From Immundisolibacter sp. (GTDB lineage: Bacteria; Pseudomonadota; Gammaproteobacteria; Immundisolibacterales; Immundisolibacteraceae): 24,000 bases of DNA. The notes under the pieces are model-generated. The model was not told where the DNA came from. It made no database searches and saw only the letters and a program-made list of their open reading frames with translations. The stretch spans positions 252,357-276,356 of the forward strand of contig NZ_JACIZD010000003.1 of the NCBI RefSeq assembly GCF_014359565.1, in the 5' to 3' direction. Positions 5,990 through 23,387 of this stretch are shown in pieces. A program made the translations under genes and the position numbers. Numbering within the stretch: the stretch's first letter is position 1; every line of letters starts with the position of its first letter.

Positions 5990-6736
5990 ATGAAGCAAGT
6001 AATCCTGACCTCGCTGGCTGCGGCCGGCCTACTGGCCGCGACCGGGGCTGCCGCCGACATCACCGGCAACGTTGGCCTGACCAGCGACTACGTGTTCCGA
6101 GGCATCAGCCAGACCGACGAGAAGCCGGCCATTCAGGGCGGCCTGGACTACGCGCACAGCAGCGGTGCCTATGCCGGTGTGTGGGCCTCCAATGTCGATT
6201 TCAACGACGGCGACGAGGCGCAGATCGAGATCGACATGTACGCCGGCATGACCGGCAAGATCGACGACCTGGGCTGGAAGTTCGGCGGCGTTTACTACAA
6301 CTACCCGGGCGTCGCCGACAGCTCCGGCCTGAAGTACGACTACTGGGAATTCGGCCCGACCCTGACCTACCCGATTGGGCCGGCCACCGCCAGCCTGCTG
6401 GTCCTGTGGAGCCCGAACTTCTACAACGAAACCGGCAAGGGTCTGTACTCCGAACTGGGCCTGTCGGCGCCGATCGGGCCGGCTGAGCCGGGTGGGCCGT
6501 TCGGTCAGTTCAACCTGGGCGGCACCTTCGGCCACCAGGACATCGAGCGCAACGCCAAGTTCGGCACCCCGGACTACAACAACTGGAGTGTGTACGCCTC
6601 CACCACTGTGGCGGGTGTTGGCCTGAAGCTGGCCTACACCGACACCGAGCTGAGCAAGAGCGAGTGCTTCGGCGGCGGCTCCTTTGGCGACTGGTGCGGC
6701 GGCCGCGCCGTGTTCAGCGTCAGCAAGGCGCTGTAA
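5990..6736 (+). CDS. TorF-family putative outer-membrane porin (TIGR02001-like)
   Basis: The signal peptide is MKQVILTSLAAAGLLAATGAAA. It is followed by ITGNVGLTSDYVFRGISQTDEKPAIQGGLDY and an aromatic-rich beta pattern, as in the family. GGAG lies 12 nt upstream of ATG 5990. Confidence 0.75.
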   Translation: MKQVILTSLAAAGLLAATGAAADITGNVGLTSDYVFRGISQTDEKPAIQGGLDYAHSSGAYAGVWASNVDFNDGDEAQIEIDMYAGMTGKIDDLGWKFGGVYYNYPGVADSSGLKYDYWEFGPTLTYPIGPATASLLVLWSPNFYNETGKGLYSELGLSAPIGPAEPGGPFGQFNLGGTFGHQDIERNAKFGTPDYNNWSVYASTTVAGVGLKLAYTDTELSKSECFGGGSFGDWCGGRAVFSVSKAL

Positions 6737-6762
6737 AGCCTGAATCCGCCTCGGCGGAAATG

Positions 6763-6800
6763 AAAAAGCGGGTGGACAGTGATGTCCACCCGCTTTTTTT
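6763..6800. terminator. Bidirectional rho-independent terminator shared by the porin gene (+) and icd (-)
   Basis: An 11-bp perfect stem (AGCGGGTGGAC at 6767-6777, GTCCACCCGCT at 6784-6794) with a 6-nt loop. It is flanked by an A run (6763-6767) and a T run (6794-6800). Confidence 0.75.
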
Positions 6801-6848
6801 GTACCCGAAATCCGTCGCTGAGCGCGTGGCGCACGCCCAGCGGTCGGC

Positions 6849-8105
6849 TTACATGTTGGCGACGATGGCCTGCCCGAACTCGCGGCTGCCGAGCTTGGTG
6901 GCGCCTTCCATCAGGCGCTCGAAGTCGTAGGTCACGGTCTTCGCCTGGATAGCGCCGGAGATGCCCTTGACGATCAGGTCGGCCGCCTCGGTCCAGCCCA
7001 GATGCCGCAGCATCATCTCGCCGGACAGGATGATCGAGCCCGGGTTCGACATGTTCTTGCCGGCGTACTTGGGGGCGGTGCCGTGCGTGGCCTCGAACAG
7101 CGCCACGGTGTCGGACATGTTGGCGCCCGGCGCGATGCCGATGCCGCCCACCTGCGCCGCCAGCGCGTCGGAGACGTAATCGCCGTTCAGGTTGAGCGTG
7201 GCGATCACGCTGTAGTCCCGCGGGCGGGTGAGGATTTGCTGCAGGAAGGCATCGGCGATCGCGTCCTTGACCACGATGTCCTTGCCGGTGCGCGGATTCT
7301 TGAAGCTGCACCACGGGCCGCCGTCGATTTCCATGGCGCCGAACTCGGCCTTGGCCAGCGCATAGCCCCAGTCCCGGAAGCCGCCTTCCGTGAACTTCAT
7401 GATGTTGCCCTTGTGCACCAGCGTCACCGACGGGCGGTCGTTGTCGATGGCGTACTGGATGGCCTTGCGCACCAGGCGCTGGGTGCCTTCCTCGGACACC
7501 GGTTTGATGCCGATACCGGAGCTTTCCGGGAAGCGGATCTTCGTGACACCCATGTCCTTGATCAGGAAATCGATCAGCTTGCGGGCCTCAGGCGAGCGCG
7601 CGGCCCACTCGATGCCGGCGTAGATGTCCTCGGAGTTCTCGCGAAAGATCACCATGTCGGTGTCTTCCGGGCGCTTGATGGGGCTGGGCGTGCCGGGGTA
7701 GTAGCGCACCGGGCGCAGGCACACGTAAAGATCGAGCTCCTGGCGCAGCGCCACGTTCAGCGAGCGCATGCCGCCGCCGACCGGCGTGGTCAGCGGTCCC
7801 TTGATGCCGACCAGGAACTCGCGCATGGCGGTCAGCGTCTCGGCCGGCAGCCAGGTGTCGCCGCCGTAGGTGGCCACCGCCTTCTCGCCGGCGTAGATCT
7901 CCATCCAGGCGATGGAGCGCTTGCCGCCGTAGGCCTTGGCGACGGCCGCGTCGAGCACCTCGATCATCGGCGGCGTCACGTCCACGCCGATGCCGTCACC
8001 CTCGATGAACGGGATGATCGGCCGATCCGGCACGTTCAGGGAGTTGTCGGCCTTGGCGGTAATGCGCGCGCCGTCGGTCGGTACAATGATTTTTTCGTAA
8101 GCCAT
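6849..8105 (-). CDS. icd: NADP-dependent isocitrate dehydrogenase
   Basis: 418 aa starting [45 protein letters not shown]. It is collinear with E. coli Icd (416 aa), and the C-terminus is [18 protein letters not shown]. The upstream 58 codons of the track ORF were rejected. Confidence 0.95.
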
Positions 8106-8175
8106 GGCCTCGCCTGCCTGCTGGAATAATGAGGCCGGCATTTTAATCGACAACCGGTCCTTCTTACTTCCGCCC

Positions 8176-8481
8176 ATGCCGCAGCACACCATCCTGATCG
8201 CCGACACGGGCGAGAGCTTCCCCTGCGCCGAAGACCAGTCCGTCCTGCACGGCATGAGCCGCCTGGGCCGCAAAGGCATCCCGCAGGGCTGCTACGGCGG
8301 CGGCTGCGGCGTGTGCAAGATCCAGGTACTCAGCGGCCGTTACCACACGCGCAAGATGAGTCGCGACCAGGTCACGGCCGAGGAAGAACAGGCCGGTTAT
8401 GCGCTGGCCTGCCGCACCTGCGCCGACGAAGACCTGACGCTGCGCGTGATCGGCAAGCTGCGCAAGGCGTTGACGCGCTGA
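8176..8481 (+). CDS. XylT-type plant-like [2Fe-2S] ferredoxin
   Basis: [52 protein letters not shown]...ALACRT closely parallels the remembered XylT sequence (FRCAEGQSVLRAMEAQGKRCIPVGCRGGGCGLCRVRVLSGAYRSGRMSRGHV...ALACQ). The cysteine pattern is C-x4-C-x2-C...C. Confidence 0.75.
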
Positions 8482-8572
8482 CCGGCCGCTGGCGGGGTGC
8501 TGTCGACGGCCCGTCCATACCGACCGACGGTTCGCAAACGCGCTGCCGCGGGTCGTGCTGATGCGTCGATCG

Positions 8573-9250
8573 TCACAGCGGCTGAGCCGCAGGCGCTTTG
8601 ACAAAGCGCAGGTGCCCGGTCTTCATCCAGACCCGCGCGCCTTTGGCCGTGTCCGTCGCCGACAAGCGTTGGCCCTCGGGCAGGCGCAGCCAGGCATGCT
8701 TGCCCAGCGTCTCGCCGTCCACGATGATCTCGCCGTCGATGACGAGCAGCTCGATTCCGCCGGGCGCATCGCAGCTCAGCGCAGCGCCCGCGTCGAGCCG
8801 GCTGTAGGTCACGGTTTCGCGCCCGTCCTGGTGCAGAGTCGCGGTGGCGACGCCATTCACTGGGGCGCCGAGTTCGGCTTCCATGTGCTTGCGAACCGGA
8901 GTGCGGTCGGCCGGGTCGAACTGCCAGAGTTTCACGAAGATCGTGCACCCCTGCGCCGAGCCGGGCGTGTGGGCGCTGGTCGGGGGATTGCGCACGTAGG
9001 TGCCGACTGGAAAATCGCCGTGCTCGTCCTGAAACACCCCGTCGAGCACCACGAACTCCTCACCCCCGGGATGGCTATGGGCCGAGAACCTGCTGCCGGG
9101 CGCATACCGCACGATGCTCGTGGCGCGCGCCACCTCGTCCCCGATGCGGTCCAGCATGCGCCGGGCCACGCCTTGCACGGGCGAGGGGCGCCATTCCAAC
9201 CGGTCCGAATGCACGACGACGCGCTTGGAGAAATCCGCGTTGATTTCCAT
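8573..9250 (-). CDS. ChrR-like cupin domain protein (Cupin_7 type), stand-alone
   Basis: 225 aa from ATG 9250, preceded by AGGAGGGAG. The cupin motif is [40 protein letters not shown], and a second beta-barrel half follows. There is no zinc-binding anti-sigma N-terminal domain and no adjacent ECF sigma gene. Confidence 0.75.
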
Positions 9251-9861
9251 GAGACTCCCTCCTGTCGTGACCATGAGCTGGCGATCGCGTTGCCCGGCAA
9301 TCGCCGGGGTGGACCGCGACTTTCGCATGCCAGGGAGGGAGATTGCGCAGGGTTGGGGGATTTCAAGATTGGCGACACCCGCAGATATCAGGCAGGAAAC
9401 GGCGGTGATTTTCGGCGATCGTTGGGGAACAAAGGCCGGGTACGTTCGGCCGCGCTCGGTGCGAATGTGGGTGATATCGGCGCCCAGGCGTGATCGAGGG
9501 CGGCGGCCTGAACTGGCGGTCCCGCACCATGACCGCCATCGGCAGCTCATGCCGGCGGTCGCTGGTGTGGAGGAGTCTGCGTTTGCGGCGCGCCCGCTGG
9601 CTGTGCTGCGGCGCTGCTGTCCATAAGGTCATCGGCAAACGGGGTGAACCCGTCAGGGGCATCGTCGATTTTCCAGGTTCGTCAGGGCTGGCCTTTGCGG
9701 TCCAGCCGTTTCAGGTGGGCGGCGTATTGTTCGATGCGGTTGCGCTGTCTGCCGGTCGCTGGGCAGCAAGCCGCGGCCCGCGAGTCTGCGCGGGTTTCGG
9801 CGCAACTGGCTGCCGACTGGTGGGTGGCGGTGTGTTGAGCAGGGTTTGATGCCTGACCGGA

Positions 9862-10240
9862 TTACGCGCCCCCGATCACCCGTGCCACATCACCGTGGCA
9901 CTCGGCGCACTTGCCCACCAGCAGCAAGTCGCTGCCCTTGATGATGCCGCCGAAATTGGTGATGGTTGTTTGGTGACCGCACTGCCCACACCAGACGTTG
10001 ACGGATGTCGGCAGGGATGGACTCCCATCGCTGGCAGGCAGGTTTGGTGAATGTCGGCAAGGATTCCACGGTTGGGCCCGCTATCTCGAGCTGCTGTTCG
10101 ACAAGAAGCTGGCCTGCCGCCTGGCAGGCGCTGTGGAGAACGAAAGTCGACACGGGCATCCCTGCAACTTCCGCCGCGCGGCGCTGCAGACCCCGCGGAT
10201 CGGGCGTCATCCGTAGCGCAATTCGAACCCAGCCGGGCAT
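9862..10240 (-). pseudogene. TacA/DUF1778-like ribbon-helix-helix antitoxin homologue, apparently frameshifted. A CxxC...CxxC zinc ribbon is encoded in a second frame.
   Basis: The frame from ATG 10240 gives MPGWVRIALRMTPDPRGLQRRAAEVAGMPVSTFVLHSACQAAGQLLVEQQ, the DUF1778 pattern, then decays to a low-complexity tail ending at 9890. A second frame, open from 10080 to the TAA at 9862-9864, has no start codon before the motif and reads ...VWCGQCGHQTTITNFGGIIKGSDLLLVGKCAECHGDVARVIGGA. Confidence 0.4.
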
Positions 10241-10262
10241 CGAGTCGTTCAGATCGCTCACT

Positions 10263-10646
10263 TCACTCCCCTTCGACCCTTGCGAATCCGCGCAGCCATG
10301 GCTCGAGATGGGCGATATCAAACGTGCCCGACTCGAACATCTGCATCATCTGCGCATGGATCTGCATCGGCGCACGCTGCAAGCGCCAGCCGTTGATGCG
10401 CAAGAACACGTCGGCAGCCGCAAAGGCGATACGTTTGTTGCCATCCACGAAGGGATGGTTGATTGCGAGGCTTTCGAGCAGCGCCGCCGCCTCGGCCACG
10501 ATGTCATCGTAGTAGCCGGTCTGCGGGCGAAACAGTGCGGCCTCCAGCGCCCCGGGATCGCGCACGCCCGGCGCGCCGCCGTAACGCTGCATCAGCACCG
10601 TGTGCATGCCGAGCATGTCGGCCACGGTCAGGTAATCGCGCGGCAC
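10263..10646 (-). CDS. doc: Type II toxin, death-on-curing (Doc/Fic) family
   Basis: GTG start. It carries the Fic/Doc motif HPFVDGNKRIAFAAA and a typical N-terminus, LTVADMLGMHTVLMQRYGG..GVRD.GALEAAL.RP. Confidence 0.85.
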   Translation of the reverse strand: MPRDYLTVADMLGMHTVLMQRYGGAPGVRDPGALEAALFRPQTGYYDDIVAEAAALLESLAINHPFVDGNKRIAFAAADVFLRINGWRLQRAPMQIHAQMMQMFESGTFDIAHLEPWLRGFARVEGE

Positions 10647-16479: not shown

Positions 16480-17619
16480 ATGGGCACCCTGGAGCGCTTC
16501 AATTTCGATGCCAGTCATCGCAAATACTCGCAAGATGACGTGCGTCGTGCGGCGCGCAACATGCTGATCGACGGCTGCCAGATGAAGGCCGGCGACGAGG
16601 TGCTGATCCTGAACGAGAACGGCATCACCGAACCGGCCGCCTCGGACATCATCGAGGACGAGGCGCGCAAGCTCGGCGGGCGCGTGCACGTGATGTGGAC
16701 CGACACCGTCAGGGGCCCCGAGGACATGCCGCCGTCGGTGGTCAAGGCCTTCGAGTCGCCGGACGTGACCATCTTCAACCACATGATCGCCGGCGTGCTG
16801 CGCATGGTGCCGTTCAACGGCCGCGGCATGAAGATGCTGAATTTTCTGCAGACCTGGGACCAGCTGGGTTCGCCGTTCGGGCAGGTGCCATACGGGGTGT
16901 GGCTGGAGGTGCTCAAGAACCTCGGCCCGCGCCTGGGGTCGGCCAAGCGCTGGCGCATCACCTGCCCGCTGGGCAGTGAGCTGTCCGGGCCGATCCCGCA
17001 GCCGGGCCAGTCGCCCAAGCCGGCCAAGTCCGACGCCAAGGCCACCGGCGACGGCTTCACGCTGCGCACCTTTCCGCTGGGCGTGTGCCAGGTGTTCGAT
17101 GCCATGCAGGCCAGCGGTCGCCTTGCCGTGCGCTGGCTGACGCCGTCCGGCATCCACGTGTTCGAGCCCAACGGCATTGCCCTGCCCAGCCCGGTGCTGA
17201 TCGATATCGAAAACGGCCGCATCACCGGCTTCGATGGCGACCCGCAGGCCGTCGCCCAGCTGCGCGCCTACATGGAAAAGTGCGGCGGTGAGACGGGCAA
17301 GGAGCCCTACATCGTCAATTCCTGGCACGCCGGCATCAACCCGCGCTGCGCCGTCACGGCCGGGCCCGAGCAGGGTCTGGACCAGTGGATGTACATGGTT
17401 CACGCCAACCCGCGCATCGTGCATTTCCACACCATCGGCCCGCTGCAGCCGGGCGAGATGTCGATTCCGGTGGTCGATCCGACCATCGAGTTCGACGGCG
17501 AGAAGGTGTGGGACGCCGGCCGGCTGGTGTTTCTGGATCGCCCCGACCTGCGCGACAAGGTACGCGCCTTCGGCGATCCGGATTTCGCCTTCCATCACGA
17601 ACTCGAAATCGGCATCTAG
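16480..17619 (+). CDS. COG2309 / peptidase-M29-fold protein, NicX-like (2,5-dihydroxypyridine dioxygenase family or aminopeptidase-like). Function unresolved.
   Basis: GAGGAG at 16463-16468 precedes ATG 16480, giving 379 aa. The N-terminal layout (G..V.IL....... A....A..LGG.V) and the C-terminal region (IENGRITGFDG....L..YM......Y..SWHAGINPR...HFHT.......IP...PTIEFDGEKVWDAGRLV) resemble my memory of P. putida NicX. The CDS itself is confident. The family call is moderate. Confidence 0.55.
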   Translation: MGTLERFNFDASHRKYSQDDVRRAARNMLIDGCQMKAGDEVLILNENGITEPAASDIIEDEARKLGGRVHVMWTDTVRGPEDMPPSVVKAFESPDVTIFNHMIAGVLRMVPFNGRGMKMLNFLQTWDQLGSPFGQVPYGVWLEVLKNLGPRLGSAKRWRITCPLGSELSGPIPQPGQSPKPAKSDAKATGDGFTLRTFPLGVCQVFDAMQASGRLAVRWLTPSGIHVFEPNGIALPSPVLIDIENGRITGFDGDPQAVAQLRAYMEKCGGETGKEPYIVNSWHAGINPRCAVTAGPEQGLDQWMYMVHANPRIVHFHTIGPLQPGEMSIPVVDPTIEFDGEKVWDAGRLVFLDRPDLRDKVRAFGDPDFAFHHELEIGI

Positions 17620-17664: not shown

Positions 17665-18717
17665 ATGACCCGCACCATCTGGTACACCCGCTGCCCGGTG
17701 CCGACCGCGTCCGGCATCGCCTATCAGCGCAAGCTGTTCGACAGCCAGTTCGCGGGCACCGACTGCGAGGTCCGCAACATCAAGGAACTGGGCCGTGCCA
17801 ATGCGGACACGCATTTCGCCCACACGCTGGAGGATTCGTTCCGCGAGGGCGGTGGCTCGCCGCCGGTGTGGGCCCGCTCGCGCGGGGCGGATACATCGCT
17901 GCTGGGCATCAGTTTCGTCGAGGAGACCTTGGGCCTGTTCGTGCGCGCGGATGACCCCATCCACTCGGTGCGGGATCTGGCCGGCAAGCGTCTGGCGCTG
18001 CCGGTGTGGCCCGATCTGATCATGAATTTCTTCCGCTTCGCGGCCCAGAAGGCCTTCGTGTCGGCGCTCGAACTGCACGGCATGCACGAGCGCGATGCAC
18101 AGTTCGTGGACGTGGTCGAGACCGCCGATCACCATGAGCTGATCAATCCCGGCTTTGCCGATACCCAGGCCCGCCAGCAGCGGTCGTACTATCACTGTCA
18201 GATGCGCGCCCTGCTGGACGGCAAGGTCGACGCCTTCTTCGCCAAGGGCGGCGAGATTGCCGCCATGCAGCGCGAGTCCGGCGGCGGCATCCGCATGCTC
18301 TATAACCTGATCGACGCCGAGCCGCTGTGGGCCAAGGTCAACAACGCCACCCCGCGGCTGCTCACGGTCAGCAATTCGCTGGTCCGCGAGCGCCCGGATG
18401 CCGTGGTGCGCTACGCGCGCACCCTGCTGCAGGCCGCCACCTGGGCGGCGCAGCCGGAAAACAAGGCCGAAGCCACCGCCGCCATGGCGCGCGAGACCGG
18501 TGTCACGCCGGCGGACATCGAAACCTACTACACGCCGGACCTGCACCAGAAGCTGAAGCCCGAACTGAGCGCGCGCCTGATAGAGACGCTGGAGATCATG
18601 AAAAGCTTCCTGCACGCGCACGGCTTCATCGAAAAGAATTTCCCGACCCGGGACTGGCTGGCCACCGACCTGCTGCGCGAGGCGTATGCGGCCGAAGGCA
18701 TCGCCTGGCCGGACTGA
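17665..18717 (+). CDS. Cytoplasmic periplasmic-binding-protein-fold (NMT1/SsuA-like) protein resembling DszB, the 2'-hydroxybiphenyl-2-sulfinate desulfinase
   Basis: 350 aa with no signal peptide. TIWYTRCPVPTASGIA compares with DszB TLTYSNCPVPNALLTA. THFAHTLEDSFREGGGSPPVW compares with DszB VHFTYDQPAYTRFGGEIPPLL, with identical H-x9-R-x-GG-xx-PP spacing. LLGISFVEETLGLFVRADDPIHSVRDLAGKRLAL compares with LLGITPLLGRQGFFVRDDSPITAAADLAGRRIGV. The DszB sequence is recalled from memory. Confidence 0.6.
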   Translation: MTRTIWYTRCPVPTASGIAYQRKLFDSQFAGTDCEVRNIKELGRANADTHFAHTLEDSFREGGGSPPVWARSRGADTSLLGISFVEETLGLFVRADDPIHSVRDLAGKRLALPVWPDLIMNFFRFAAQKAFVSALELHGMHERDAQFVDVVETADHHELINPGFADTQARQQRSYYHCQMRALLDGKVDAFFAKGGEIAAMQRESGGGIRMLYNLIDAEPLWAKVNNATPRLLTVSNSLVRERPDAVVRYARTLLQAATWAAQPENKAEATAAMARETGVTPADIETYYTPDLHQKLKPELSARLIETLEIMKSFLHAHGFIEKNFPTRDWLATDLLREAYAAEGIAWPD

Positions 18718-18757
18718 GCTTTCCAGAAATCAACCGCCCAACCAGGAACTTTCGATC

Positions 18758-19246
18758 ATGAATAGCCCGCTCGACCCCAAAGCCCTGCGTCAGGTGTTCG
18801 GCCAGTTCTGCACCGGGGTCACGGTGGTATGCGCCACCGACACGCAAGGCCGCCGCTACGGCATCACCGTCAACTCCTTCAGCTCGCTGTCGCTGGACCC
18901 GCCGCTGGCGCTGTTCGCCCTGACCCGGGAGTCCGAGACCCTGAAGATCATCGAGGCCGCCGGTGCCTTCAGCATCAACATCCTGGCCGAAAACCAGCAG
19001 GACATCTCGAACCGCCTGGCCAAGAGGGGCGGACCGGAGAAGATGGACGGCGTCGTCACCCATCCGGGCGTCACCGGCGCACCGATCGTCGAAGGCTCGA
19101 TCGGCTACCTGGACTGCACGCTGCGCAACAACTACGACGGCGGCGACCACGTGATCCTGGTCGGTGAGATCAAACTGGCCGCGGTCGGCGAGCCGCTGCC
19201 GCCGCTGCTGTATTTTCGTAGTGCCTACAGGACCGTGACGGATTGA
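18758..19246 (+). CDS. NAD(P)H-flavin reductase (HpaC/DszD-type flavin reductase domain)
   Basis: LRQVFGQFCTGVTVVCA......GITVNSFSSLSLDPPLALFAL.......I.....F.INILA..Q...S..........GAP...GS...L.C........GDH.I.VGE is the flavin_reduct family pattern. Confidence 0.85.
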   Translation: MNSPLDPKALRQVFGQFCTGVTVVCATDTQGRRYGITVNSFSSLSLDPPLALFALTRESETLKIIEAAGAFSINILAENQQDISNRLAKRGGPEKMDGVVTHPGVTGAPIVEGSIGYLDCTLRNNYDGGDHVILVGEIKLAAVGEPLPPLLYFRSAYRTVTD

Positions 19247-19280
19247 TCGTCGCCGCGCAGCAACACCACAGGAGGTCGAG

Positions 19281-19706
19281 ATGGACAAGGCTACGGTGAC
19301 CGAGACCATCGACGTGAACGCATCCCTGGACAAGGCGTGGGCGCTGGTCGGCGATTTCGGCGGCCTGGTCGGCTGGTTTCCGGCGGTCACCGAAAGCATC
19401 GTCGAGGGCAGCGGTGTGGGCGCGCTGCGCCACCTGACCATGCCCGACGGGAATCAGCTGACCGAGCGCCAGCAGGCGCGCGACGATGCCGCCCGTTGCT
19501 ACGAGTACGTGGTCATCGCCGGTGCGCTGCCGTGCACCGACTATCGGTCGCGGCTGGCCGTGAGCCCGGCCGGCAGTGGGGCGCGGATCACCTGGACCGC
19601 CGAGTTCGTGCCGCTGCCGGATGCGCCCGTGGACGCGGTGGCCTTCATCAGCAGCATCTATCAGAGCGGGCTGGCCGGCGCCAAGGCAGTGCTGGACGGC
19701 CAGTAG
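19281..19706 (+). CDS. SRPBCC (Bet v1 / polyketide-cyclase-like) ligand-binding protein
   Basis: AGGAGG precedes the ATG. The 141-aa protein has I.VNASLDKAWALVGDFGGLVGWFPAV, which is typical of the family. Confidence 0.75.
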   Translation: MDKATVTETIDVNASLDKAWALVGDFGGLVGWFPAVTESIVEGSGVGALRHLTMPDGNQLTERQQARDDAARCYEYVVIAGALPCTDYRSRLAVSPAGSGARITWTAEFVPLPDAPVDAVAFISSIYQSGLAGAKAVLDGQ

Positions 19707-19726
19707 GCATCGTCGCAACGCGCCGG

Positions 19727-19766
19727 GCTTCACCGCCTGGCGGCTGATGCCCCCAGGCGGTGAAGC
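19727..19766. other. 14-bp perfect inverted repeat (hairpin) between and within the convergent gene ends
   Basis: GCTTCACCGCCTGG (19727-19740) and CCAGGCGGTGAAGC (19753-19766) with a 12-nt loop. It lies 21 nt after the SRPBCC stop and inside the 3' end of the dioxygenase ORF. There is no U tract. Confidence 0.5.
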
Positions 19767-20393
19767 GCGTCAGATGCCGCTGACGCCAGTTGGGGCCAAC
19801 GTCGTAGCCGCCGGTACCGATCTCCCACTCGAAACCCGACGGCGTGCGGCCGTAGAAGGAGAACACGTCGTCGGTGTGGCGGCCGGGCAGGTGGGTGATT
19901 TCCACCCCGGCGGCGCGCGCGCGATCGCAGGCCAAACCCACCGCGTCGATATCGGGCACGTGCATCTCGAAATGCGCCGTGCGCTTGACCGGTGGAATGC
20001 CGACGCCCAGTGCAATCGAGTGATGGCGGCGGTTGCAGTGCAGGAACACCGCCTCGATGGTCAGGCCGGCCCACTCCTCGGCGCCGCGGTCCGAGACGGC
20101 CATGCCGATCACGTCGGTGTAGAAACGCAGCGTCGGCTCCAGATCCTGCGTCACCAGCACGATGTGGCCCATGCCCATGTCGCCGGTCACAAAGCCGCTT
20201 GGTGCGACCGCCGAGGCAAACGCCGTCGCCGCCACGCGCTGGCCCAGACACAGTTCCAGCGGATTGCCGGACGGGTCGCGGAAGCTGACCAGATCGGTCA
20301 CGTGGCGGGCGCGGCAGGCGCTTTCGTCACCTTTGTGCATAGCCACGCCGGCTGCCTTCAGACGGCCCAGCGCGGCATCGAATTCGCCGCGAT

Positions 20394-20599
20394 TCAGCGC
20401 CGCCAGGCCCACCGCCGCCACGTCGTCCTGGCTGCCGGGACGCAGGAACAGTCGCTGTTCGCACTCGTCCATGCGGTAGCCACGCGAGCCATCGTCTCAG
20501 CGCCGCCAGGCCCACCGCCGCCACGTCGTCCTGGCTGCCGGGACGCAGGAACAGTCGCTGTTCGCACTCGTCCATGCGGTAGCCACGCGAGCCATCGTC
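20394..20599. repeat. Perfect direct tandem duplication, 2 x 103 bp
   Basis: Compared base by base, 20394-20496 and 20497-20599 are identical (TCAGCGCCGCCAGGCCCACC...GAGCCATCGTC). The flanking bases differ, so the unit is exactly 103 bp. Confidence 0.95.
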
Positions 20600-20967
20600 G
20601 TTGCCGCCATTGCCAATCATGCCGATGACATTGGTCAGCAAAGCCTCCCAGCCCTGCAGGTCCGAGACCTCGAAACCCAGATAGGCGAGTTCCAGTCCGG
20701 CGGTCATCACGCGCTCCCCCTGTAATTGGCGGCCAGCGTGGGGTTCATCGCCGGCCGGGCTGCTGCCAGCGATGCGCTGGGCAGCTTCTTGATGGCTGGG
20801 TCATCGTATCCGAAACGCAAAACGGGAACGGCCGGTCGCCGGGGAAGCGCGCAAAACTGTTGCGCGACGCGCGGGCTCTCGATGCTGGCAAGGTGGCGAG
20901 GCGGGCGGTTCGACCTGAGCGGGGAGCGCTCGTTCGGGCAGCGGCAGCCGGAAAGTCCAGGCTGGAG

Positions 20968-22395
20968 CTAGTCGGCGCAGTGTCGGGCCGGGTGCGTGAC
21001 TGGCAAGACGGCTTGCCCCTTTTTTTCCGACTTGGGGCGGCGCGCCGCCTGCTGCTCGGGAAGTTGCGGCGAACGCGCGCCGGCCTTCATCCCCTGCCTG
21101 AAAAACTGGTAGTTGTCTCGCCCTTCGTTTTTGGCGTGGTACATCGCGGCGTCCGCGCAGCGGATCAAGGCCGCAGCGGTCGCCACGTGTCCCCCCTCGG
21201 GAAACAGGCTGATACCGATACTGACGCTGATCCGAATGTCGGAGCCGGCGATGGTATGCGGTGCTGCCAGGGCGTTCAGCATCTTCTGGGCGCTCAGGCC
21301 GGCATCCCCGGCCTGCTGGATTTCCGATAGCAGGACTACAAATTCGTCTCCGCCCTGCCGGCTTACGGTGTCCGATCCGCGCACGCAGGCCAGCAGGCGT
21401 TGTGCCACCGACTGGAGCAGTTTGTCGCCCACCAGATGGCCCAAAGAGTCATTGATCTGTTTGAATCCATCCAGGTCCAGGAACAGCACGGCGCCCTGGT
21501 TGCCATGACGGCGTGCCAGGGATATTGCATTTTCAATCCGGTCATTCAGCAATATGCGGTTCGGCAAATTGGTCAGGGCGTCGTGATGGGCCAGATAAGC
21601 CAGGTGTTGTGTCTTGGCGCGGGCGGCAGTCACGTCGCGAAACACGATTACCGCTCCGCTTGTCTTGCCAGCAGCATCACGGATTGGGGCGGCCGAATCC
21701 TCAATGGCATATTCCTTTCCATCGCGCCGGACCAGCACGCAGTTGGCGGTCAAGCCCACGGGCTTGTCTTCCTGGATTGCCTGCTGCAATGGATTGGGCG
21801 CCACTTCGCGCGTAATGCCATCAACGATTCTGAATACCTCGCCAACCGAGTGACCGGTCGCCTCCGCATCAGTCCAGCCGGTCATGTCTTCGGCCACCGG
21901 ATTCAGGTACGTCACATTGCCCGCAAGATCGGTGCTCAGCACGGCATCACCGATCGAGTTCAGCGTGGCATGGGCGCGATCGGTCACGACCGACGCGGCC
22001 TGCTCGTTGGTGTGACGCTCGATCACGCTGCGCAGAATGCGCGGCAACCAGTACGCGTCAAGGTGATTCTTCAGCAGATGGTCCTGCGCGCCAAGCTGAA
22101 TGGCTTGCCGGGCGAGCGCAGAATTTTCGGCGCTGGTCAGAATCAGTATTGGAACGCGCCGCGCGGCCCTGAACACTATCTCGAACGTCTTTATGCCTTG
22201 ACTGTCGGGCAGGAACAGGTCAAGCAACACCGCGACGATTCCGGGTCTGAACAAACGGTCAACGCCATCTGAAATCCGGTTGACCTGTTGCAGCGTCCAT
22301 TTTTTATCAACCGACGTGGCCAATGCCTTGCGAATGAGCATTGCATCAGCGGCGCAGTCCGAGACAAGCAGTACGGTGCAAAGGTCGTTGTCCAT
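20968..22395 (-). CDS. Response-regulator receiver - PAS - GGDEF diguanylate cyclase
   Basis: REC domain: VLLVSD...AVLLDLFLPD...ILTS...LLK. PAS domain: LNSIGDAVLSTDLAGNVTYLNPVAEDMTGW. GGDEF domain with I-site: RGSDTVSRQGGDEFVVLL. The start is ATG 22395 or GTG 22431. Confidence 0.85.
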   Translation of the reverse strand: MDNDLCTVLLVSDCAADAMLIRKALATSVDKKWTLQQVNRISDGVDRLFRPGIVAVLLDLFLPDSQGIKTFEIVFRAARRVPILILTSAENSALARQAIQLGAQDHLLKNHLDAYWLPRILRSVIERHTNEQAASVVTDRAHATLNSIGDAVLSTDLAGNVTYLNPVAEDMTGWTDAEATGHSVGEVFRIVDGITREVAPNPLQQAIQEDKPVGLTANCVLVRRDGKEYAIEDSAAPIRDAAGKTSGAVIVFRDVTAARAKTQHLAYLAHHDALTNLPNRILLNDRIENAISLARRHGNQGAVLFLDLDGFKQINDSLGHLVGDKLLQSVAQRLLACVRGSDTVSRQGGDEFVVLLSEIQQAGDAGLSAQKMLNALAAPHTIAGSDIRISVSIGISLFPEGGHVATAAALIRCADAAMYHAKNEGRDNYQFFRQGMKAGARSPQLPEQQAARRPKSEKKGQAVLPVTHPARHCAD

Positions 22396-22693
22396 GAGGT
22401 CGGATTTCGAGCGGGTTTCTGTCTGCCACACGAGCGCCGGCTTTCAGTTTGTCGCCGTCATTCTGGCGCGGGCATCGGGCCCGTTCCGTGCGCTAGCCCA
22501 CGTGTTGCCGACGACCTCGACGCGGTACGGCCGGCCGGGCACCCCCCGGCCGCGGTTACGATCGGGCCGGCAGCCTGGCCTGCCACGGTTGCGCCGCACG
22601 GCCGGCGCCCGGAACCTGAAGGTCAGGTACTGGTTGAGGCGCTCGGTCGTTATGGACCCAGGGCGGCACCGAACCGCTCAGCCTTGGCCAGGC

Positions 22694-23325: not shown

Positions 23326-23387
23326 GTTGAGGTCGCCGCCCAAGGGGGTCCAACATCGAGGTTGCCGCTCACAAGGGTGTCCAACAT
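23326..23387 (+). promoter_or_regulatory. Imperfect tandem repeat (2 x 31 bp) upstream of the Crp/Fnr-family gene, possibly an operator or iteron-like site
   Basis: GTTGAGGTCGCCGCCCAAGGGGGTCCAACAT (23326-23356) is followed by CGAGGTTGCCGCTCACAAGGGTGTCCAACAT (23357-23387). The shared core is GAGGTYGCCGC..CAAGGGKGTCCAACAT. The repeat ends 27 nt before the GTG at 23414. Confidence 0.4.

Follow-up and report, generated by a model that had tools for sequence, protein, structure and literature searches.

The window that we analysed, a 24-kb stretch of DNA from a MAG of an uncultured Immundisolibacter sp., carries on its minus strand a disrupted gene for a BphC-like extradiol dioxygenase (19648-20710), which is a pseudogene in the assembly. 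As an earlier sequence-only reading of this DNA had reported, the gene contains two adjacent, perfect 103-bp copies. These units (20394-20496 and 20497-20599, both in minus-strand orientation) are the same at every base by direct string comparison, and Tandem Repeats Finder (TRF) describes the array at 20394-20599 as having a period of 103, 2.0 copies and 100% matches, with a score of 412. The unit at 20394-20496, which is the second copy in gene orientation, spans codons 38-71 and 1 nt more. Adding even one base to the repeat breaks the identity, at the left end (T/C) as at the right end (G/T), and a chance origin of a 103-nt exact repeat is ruled out. No further 103-bp unit was found across the 24 kb beyond the tandem pair. 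The units meet at 20496/20497, where ...CCATCGTC is followed by TCAGCGCC..., with no microhomology. The string running across the two units, ...GAGCCATCGTC joined to TCAGCGCCGCC..., would mark the two-copy arrangement in reads, the single-copy arrangement being GCCGCGAT, one unit and GTTGCCGCC.

Slippage-type duplications usually show microhomology at the junction, and its absence here is a point against a real 103-bp duplication. Slippage on a 7-bp GCCGCCA repeat found near both boundaries was considered and rejected, its spacing being 101 bp and not 103 bp. A false duplication produced by haplotype collapse was also ruled out, the copies being identical and the flanks fitting one haplotype. 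The duplication bears no template-switch signature of its own.

The duplication acts as a +1 frameshift in the dioxygenase gene and leaves two minus-strand open reading frames (ORFs), both of which contain MDECEQRLFLRPGSQDDVAAVGLAAL, in line with the initial description. The N-terminal ORF (20327-20710) encodes 127 aa, of which the first 71 are native and the other 56 are out of frame. The C-terminal ORF (19648-20472) encodes 274 aa, which equal the restored protein from residue 46 to residue 319; it keeps the entire catalytic domain and the metal ligands, with the first 45 residues of domain 1 gone. Neither exact product, of 127 or 274 aa, is on record in the gene collection that was searched. 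The sequence-only reading had placed an ATG start at 20710, but this codon is a GTG. The likely start is the ATG at 20707, which lies 6 nt downstream of a Shine-Dalgarno sequence, GGGGGAG (20714-20720, minus strand), has the better spacing to it, and is the start used by homologues (MTAGLE...). By the same inspection of the sequence, a Shine-Dalgarno motif is absent upstream of the ATG of the 274-aa ORF. When one unit is deleted in silico, the frame is repaired exactly, as had been claimed, and a single ORF of 960 nt and 319 aa is obtained. The further claim that this restored ORF is collinear with its homologues is true to about residue 290; the last 28 residues form a non-homologous tail, which is there because a second change took away the normal stop codon.

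As for the identity of the enzyme, the restored protein matches two Pfam domains, BphC_D1 (PF22632) over residues 8-58 (E=2e-16) and Glyoxalase (PF00903) over residues 146-263 (E=6e-26). The nearest solved structure is that of BphC, the 2,3-dihydroxybiphenyl 1,2-dioxygenase of Burkholderia xenovorans LB400 (1HAN, E=2.4e-56), residues 7-289 of the restored protein aligning with residues 5-287. Residues H148, H212 and E262, numbered from the GTG, do not vary when the restored protein is aligned with nine homologues, and they align to the ligands in 1HAN, being the equivalents of His146, His210 and Glu260, the 2-His-1-carboxylate Fe(II) ligands of LB400 BphC. The domains, the structural match and the conserved ligands thus bear out the earlier assignment to two-domain BphC-type extradiol dioxygenases, and the restored protein is predicted to be a type I enzyme of this kind, within the VOC superfamily. 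Its scores fall below the curated cut-offs of two NCBIfam equivalogs, biphenyl-2,3-diol 1,2-dioxygenase (TIGR03213, 244.2 bits against 366.45) and the steroid-ring dioxygenase HsaC (NF045631, 190 bits against 450). It is therefore filed as BphC-like, with no substrate named. Compared with LB400 BphC, the window protein has the same arrangement of BphC_D1 and Glyoxalase domains and conserves both the metal ligands and the equivalent of Tyr250. In contrast to LB400 BphC, its gene lies outside any bph operon, is broken by the duplication and has a 28-aa C-terminal extension.

The surroundings of the gene are mainly housekeeping, with genes for UDG, Hsp33, isocitrate dehydrogenase (icd), DHFR (folA), thymidylate synthase (thyA), ThiG and TrmB. 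The ThiG, Hsp33 and SRPBCC proteins of the window are exact matches to MBC7161893, MBC7161878 and MBC7161898 of an Immundisolibacter sp. MAG, encoded on a contig of 323,657 bp. Convergent on the dioxygenase gene, and next to these housekeeping genes, lies a four-gene module on the plus strand, which encodes an uncharacterised 379-aa protein, an SsuA/NMT1-like binding protein, an HsaB-like flavin reductase and an SRPBCC protein (Polyketide_cyc2). The gene for the last of these (19281-19706, plus strand) has its 3' end overlapped by the extended dioxygenase ORF. The flavin reductase scores 153 bits, below its cut-off of 230, and no HsaA-like oxygenase was found among the neighbouring genes. Upstream of the dioxygenase gene is a response-regulator-PAS-GGDEF gene. 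To speak of a neighbouring catabolic cluster, as had been done, is consequently an overstatement, since what is present is a small four-gene module flanked by housekeeping genes. The gene for the 379-aa protein (16480-17619, plus strand), which is the first of the module, is kept together with the dioxygenase in all the related contigs and in the contig L002 described below. The 379-aa protein has no match in Pfam, NCBIfam or PDB sequences, its sole record being a precomputed NicX hit graded as faint.

We then compared the locus with its orthologues, as the sequence-only reading had proposed, using related contigs retrieved through the exact neighbouring SRPBCC, 72-aa and DUF5670 proteins from NCBI MAGs, Logan, JGI and ENA. 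The best protein match to the restored protein (P0001, 291 aa) is 94% identical to it, and in this protein, as in nine other homologues, collinearity with the restored one continues right across the junction. A single unit is present at the site in nine contigs that are 98.2-99.8% identical to the window (L082-L087, L089, L090 and L095), and in three more distant ones (L001, L002 and L102). Two-copy orthologues were not found, all 12 contigs crossing the site being single-copy, and neither this duplication nor any other occurs in the gene in any of these 12, which as consensus assemblies cannot show minority alleles. The duplication junction, sought as an exact 28-nt string, gave 0 hits in a scan of JGI metagenome contigs. 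When one unit is removed, the window gene shows 0 nucleotide differences over its first 288 codons from the intact 291-aa gene of L087. With one copy in 12 related contigs and no difference from L087, the duplication is, as judged by these comparisons, private to the lineage and very recent, as had been supposed. Since the window has no other private indels relative to its close relatives, its assembly is not prone to indels in general.

The loss of the stop codon is a lesion in its own right. Homologues end in ...WGHQPP(A/T)(S/R) followed by the stop, and the window protein ends instead in ...WGHQPPGGEARRVATMPTGRPALPWRRPARSDRCC. The cause is a clustered replacement of 7 nt by 6 nt at 19733-19738, by which GACGCGC, as read along the gene, became AGGCGG. 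The replacement shifts the frame so that the ancestral TGA (19730-19732) is no longer read, lengthens the ORF by 28 aa and carries it 59 nt into the convergent SRPBCC gene. The ancestral sequence is CCGACGCGCTGAAGC in close relatives and CCGGCGAGCTGAAGC in more distant ones. The derived sequence, CCAGGCGGTGAAGC, is found in the window and in two Logan contigs, L088 and L086, and is the exact complement of the upstream GCTTCACCGCCTGG. The result is a perfect 14-bp inverted repeat (19727-19766, minus strand), with arms at 19727-19740 and 19753-19766 separated by a 12-nt loop, and the fold energy calculated for the single-stranded DNA is -14.1 or -16.6 kcal/mol for the ancestral sequences and -25.9 kcal/mol for the derived one. 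This 3' hairpin was not flagged as a canonical intrinsic terminator and has no T-run.

In quasi-palindrome mutations, a template switch makes an imperfect inverted repeat perfect. This class was reportedly described by Ripley, and Lovett and colleagues are said to have studied it with reporters in E. coli. The 3' lesion likewise perfects an imperfect inverted repeat by clustered changes, and it shows the defining pattern of a clustered multi-base change that yields a perfectly complementary repeat. Going by this pattern, it looks like a quasi-palindrome template-switch mutation. In L086 (from run SRR20681262), the stop-loss allele occurs with a single 103-bp unit in an intact 318-aa ORF, and the stop loss is therefore older than the duplication. 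The allele is found on two flanking haplotypes, the window and L088 resembling L087, and L086 resembling L089. Across the variable sites between 18636 and 20407, the nearest sites at which L086 differs from the window and L088 are ~720 bp away on the left side and 265 bp away on the right. This distribution implies that the allele either arose again, independently, at a hotspot or spread in a short recombination patch. The 31-nt palindrome-corrected allele gave 0 hits in the JGI metagenome contigs scanned.

Whether the duplication is a recent event or an artefact of assembly had been left undecided by the sequence-only reading. Logan assemblies, which are built with k=31, allowed an indirect check at the level of reads, as all 31-mers are distinct within a Logan accession (PMC12424806) and a perfect tandem duplication must consequently break its contigs. 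One such contig, L088 (run SRR11866716), is 100% identical to the window over 1,883 bp (18541-20423). It ends at 20423, inside the unit and 30 nt (k-1) past the last base of the flank. In a simulated k=31 graph of the window, the left unitig ends exactly at 20423, because the first 31-mer within the unit has an in-degree of 2, and the right unitig starts at 20570. When the single-copy sequence was used, the simulated graph had no break anywhere in the 24 kb. Six other Logan samples cross the site unbroken, and no SNP was found at 20424 in the relatives. From the lengths of the contigs, we estimate the chance of a coincidental contig end at precisely 20423 at roughly 1 in 2000. The identity of L088 to the window over 1,883 bp suggests that run SRR11866716 and the MAG come from one and the same population; a search of the literature on this run returned nothing. 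That L088 ends where the simulation predicts shows the unit-to-unit junction to be probably present in the reads and the duplication to be probably real, and makes concatenation after assembly unlikely.

This k-mer-break test covered the left boundary of the duplication. The right-hand contig of SRR11866716, predicted to start at 20570, was not among the places listed for the queries that we made, namely the GGDEF protein from either of two starts (457 aa and 475 aa), the 72-aa protein under two settings for the flanks and the DUF5670 protein (48 aa and 91 aa). N-terminal stubs of 44-48 aa were absent in an exact look-up as well, but this carries no weight, since the positive control, the 257-aa partial product of L088 itself, is missing from the protein table too. 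As a separate observation, L086, L087 and L088 all begin within ~70 bp of one another, at about 18515-18583 in the window, a segment in which something breaks k=31 graphs in several samples, perhaps strain variation or k-mers shared with a paralogue.

Three other accounts of the locus were weighed against a genuine loss-of-function event. In the one that denies the duplication altogether, the organism is single-copy, and the second unit was created by concatenating contig ends with a 103-bp overlap, by mis-resolving a graph loop or by a polishing step. As in known false tandem duplications arising from untrimmed contig overlaps or graph loops, the copies are exact, microhomology is lacking at the junction and the sequence comes from a MAG. 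The length of the unit is odd, as de Bruijn k-mer overlaps would be, all other assemblies of the locus are single-copy, and neither fragment product has an exact match in the gene collection. What sets the window apart from such false duplications is that an independent k=31 assembly, that of SRR11866716, stops after exactly 30 nt of the unit, the very place at which a true junction should cause a break. A stop at 20423 is predicted only if a second predecessor of the unit's first 31-mer is in the reads, and the other samples are unbroken at this site. Moreover, no private indels set the remainder of the window apart from close relatives, and any k above 103 should resolve a two-copy 103-bp array unambiguously. 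Taken jointly over its various routes, we consider an artefact quite improbable. Another possibility takes the duplication as real but of no consequence in itself, the stop loss and its 28-aa extension having already killed the enzyme, so that the duplication would be a neutral second hit in a gene undergoing decay. This is consistent with the presence of two independent frame-affecting lesions in the window gene, with the earlier date of the stop loss, which occurs alone in L086, and with an 11-bp deletion in the same gene in contig L085. However, the 318-aa ORF of L086 is otherwise intact, with 2 amino-acid changes for 10 nucleotide differences, unlike what free decay would give, and a C-terminal tail need not inactivate the enzyme. 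As for L085, it has several deletions of 11-16 bp, two of which are in other genes, which suggests a poor assembly and not selection. We hold such a neutral second hit in an already dead gene to be unlikely.

The remaining account is that the duplication acts as a reversible on/off lesion, as the sequence-only reading had proposed. In perfect tandem repeats of about 100 bp, precise deletion is known to be fairly frequent. Since precise deletion is possible for any perfect tandem repeat, the lesion is revertible in principle, and precise excision does restore the ORF. A selected switch would go further, the duplication being one state of a device that toggles ring cleavage in the manner of phase variation. 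There is a precedent in cap3A of the Streptococcus pneumoniae type 3 capsule locus, for which on/off switching by tandem duplication is mentioned in PMC11163986, citing Waite et al. 2001. Like cap3A, the dioxygenase gene has its frame destroyed by a perfect intragenic tandem duplication (103 bp x 2), and the loss of one copy would regenerate the wild-type gene, the product obtained in silico being the same as L087 over 288 codons. In contrast to cap3A, we see one event in one population, with no recurrence in sibling populations (0 of 12 contigs has any duplication in the gene). The junction is also absent from the JGI metagenome contigs, no repeat scaffold or microhomology is present that would make the event recurrent, and the gene sits among housekeeping genes. 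The 12 single-copy contigs thus provide no positive evidence for switching, and a selected ON/OFF switch modelled on cap3A appears extremely unlikely. A broader scenario, in which the locus would be a template-switch hotspot with a population-level ON/OFF polymorphism and the stop-removing correction of the palindrome would have arisen more than once, given its presence on two haplotype backgrounds, seems very unlikely too.

We thus consider it probable that the window records a real, recent and private loss-of-function duplication, sporadic in nature, in a BphC-like gene of this uncultured Immundisolibacter sp. On this reading, the duplication would have arisen on an allele whose stop codon was already lost. 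Translation from the ATG preceded by the Shine-Dalgarno sequence would produce 70-71 native residues and then the 56-residue out-of-frame tail, and the catalytic domain would be left in a 274-aa ORF that has no ribosome-binding site and lacks part of domain 1. With a nonsense-tailed 127-aa fragment on one side and an ORF without a ribosome-binding site on the other, the dioxygenase gene is most likely non-functional and its activity lost; against this stands the retention of all the catalytic residues in the 274-aa fragment. If slippage or recombination removed exactly one unit, the 318-aa allele would be regained.

The duplication is a fresh instance of a well-known mutation type. The genus Immundisolibacter comprises hydrocarbon and PAH degraders with highly redundant aromatic-catabolic genes (PMC9535955); a literature search for Immundisolibacter together with extradiol dioxygenases found no reports. 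The locus is best read as one hit member of a redundant catabolic family and not as a regulatory device, which makes it one more sporadic, potentially revertible inactivation in a genus with many such genes. It would matter more only if one-copy and two-copy alleles coexisted and shifted with exposure to substrate. In practice, the dioxygenase of this MAG should be annotated as a frameshifted pseudogene and left out of its catabolic capacity. The analysis also has useful by-products, namely a clean example of a quasi-palindrome and a k-mer-graph check, in which the points where independent k=31 Logan contigs end offer a cheap read-level check for suspected tandem duplications.

Several minor observations concern other parts of the locus or its relatives. 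Relative to the window, L085/L096 (GCA_001482255.1, LNAP01049667.1) has four deletions of 11-16 bp, at 20027, 21426, 22959 and 23522, none of which is flanked by direct repeats. One of these, of 11 bp, fragments the same dioxygenase in L085, and another, of 16 bp, lies in the GGDEF gene. These deletions reflect either independent decay or a poor-quality assembly. In L102 (ENA ERZ25039601 contig_562), which belongs to a lineage ~93% identical to the window, comparison with 20968-22431 of the window shows that the response-regulator-PAS-GGDEF gene is missing from between the 72-aa gene and the dioxygenase, which amounts to a presence/absence polymorphism beside the dioxygenase promoter region. 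In L002 (JBFXDA010000056.1, from a MAG labelled Reyranellaceae), only a five-gene module (6092-10550) matches the window, at about 85-92% identity. It consists of the genes for the 379-aa protein, the binding protein, the flavin reductase, the SRPBCC protein and the dioxygenase, and its flanks do not match, a pattern that points to horizontal transfer of the module or to a mis-binned contig. Finally, TRF detected two imperfect two-copy repeats in the window, both of 86% identity, one with a 31-bp unit in an intergenic region (23329-23387) and the other with a 21-bp unit within the SRPBCC gene (19344-19386).
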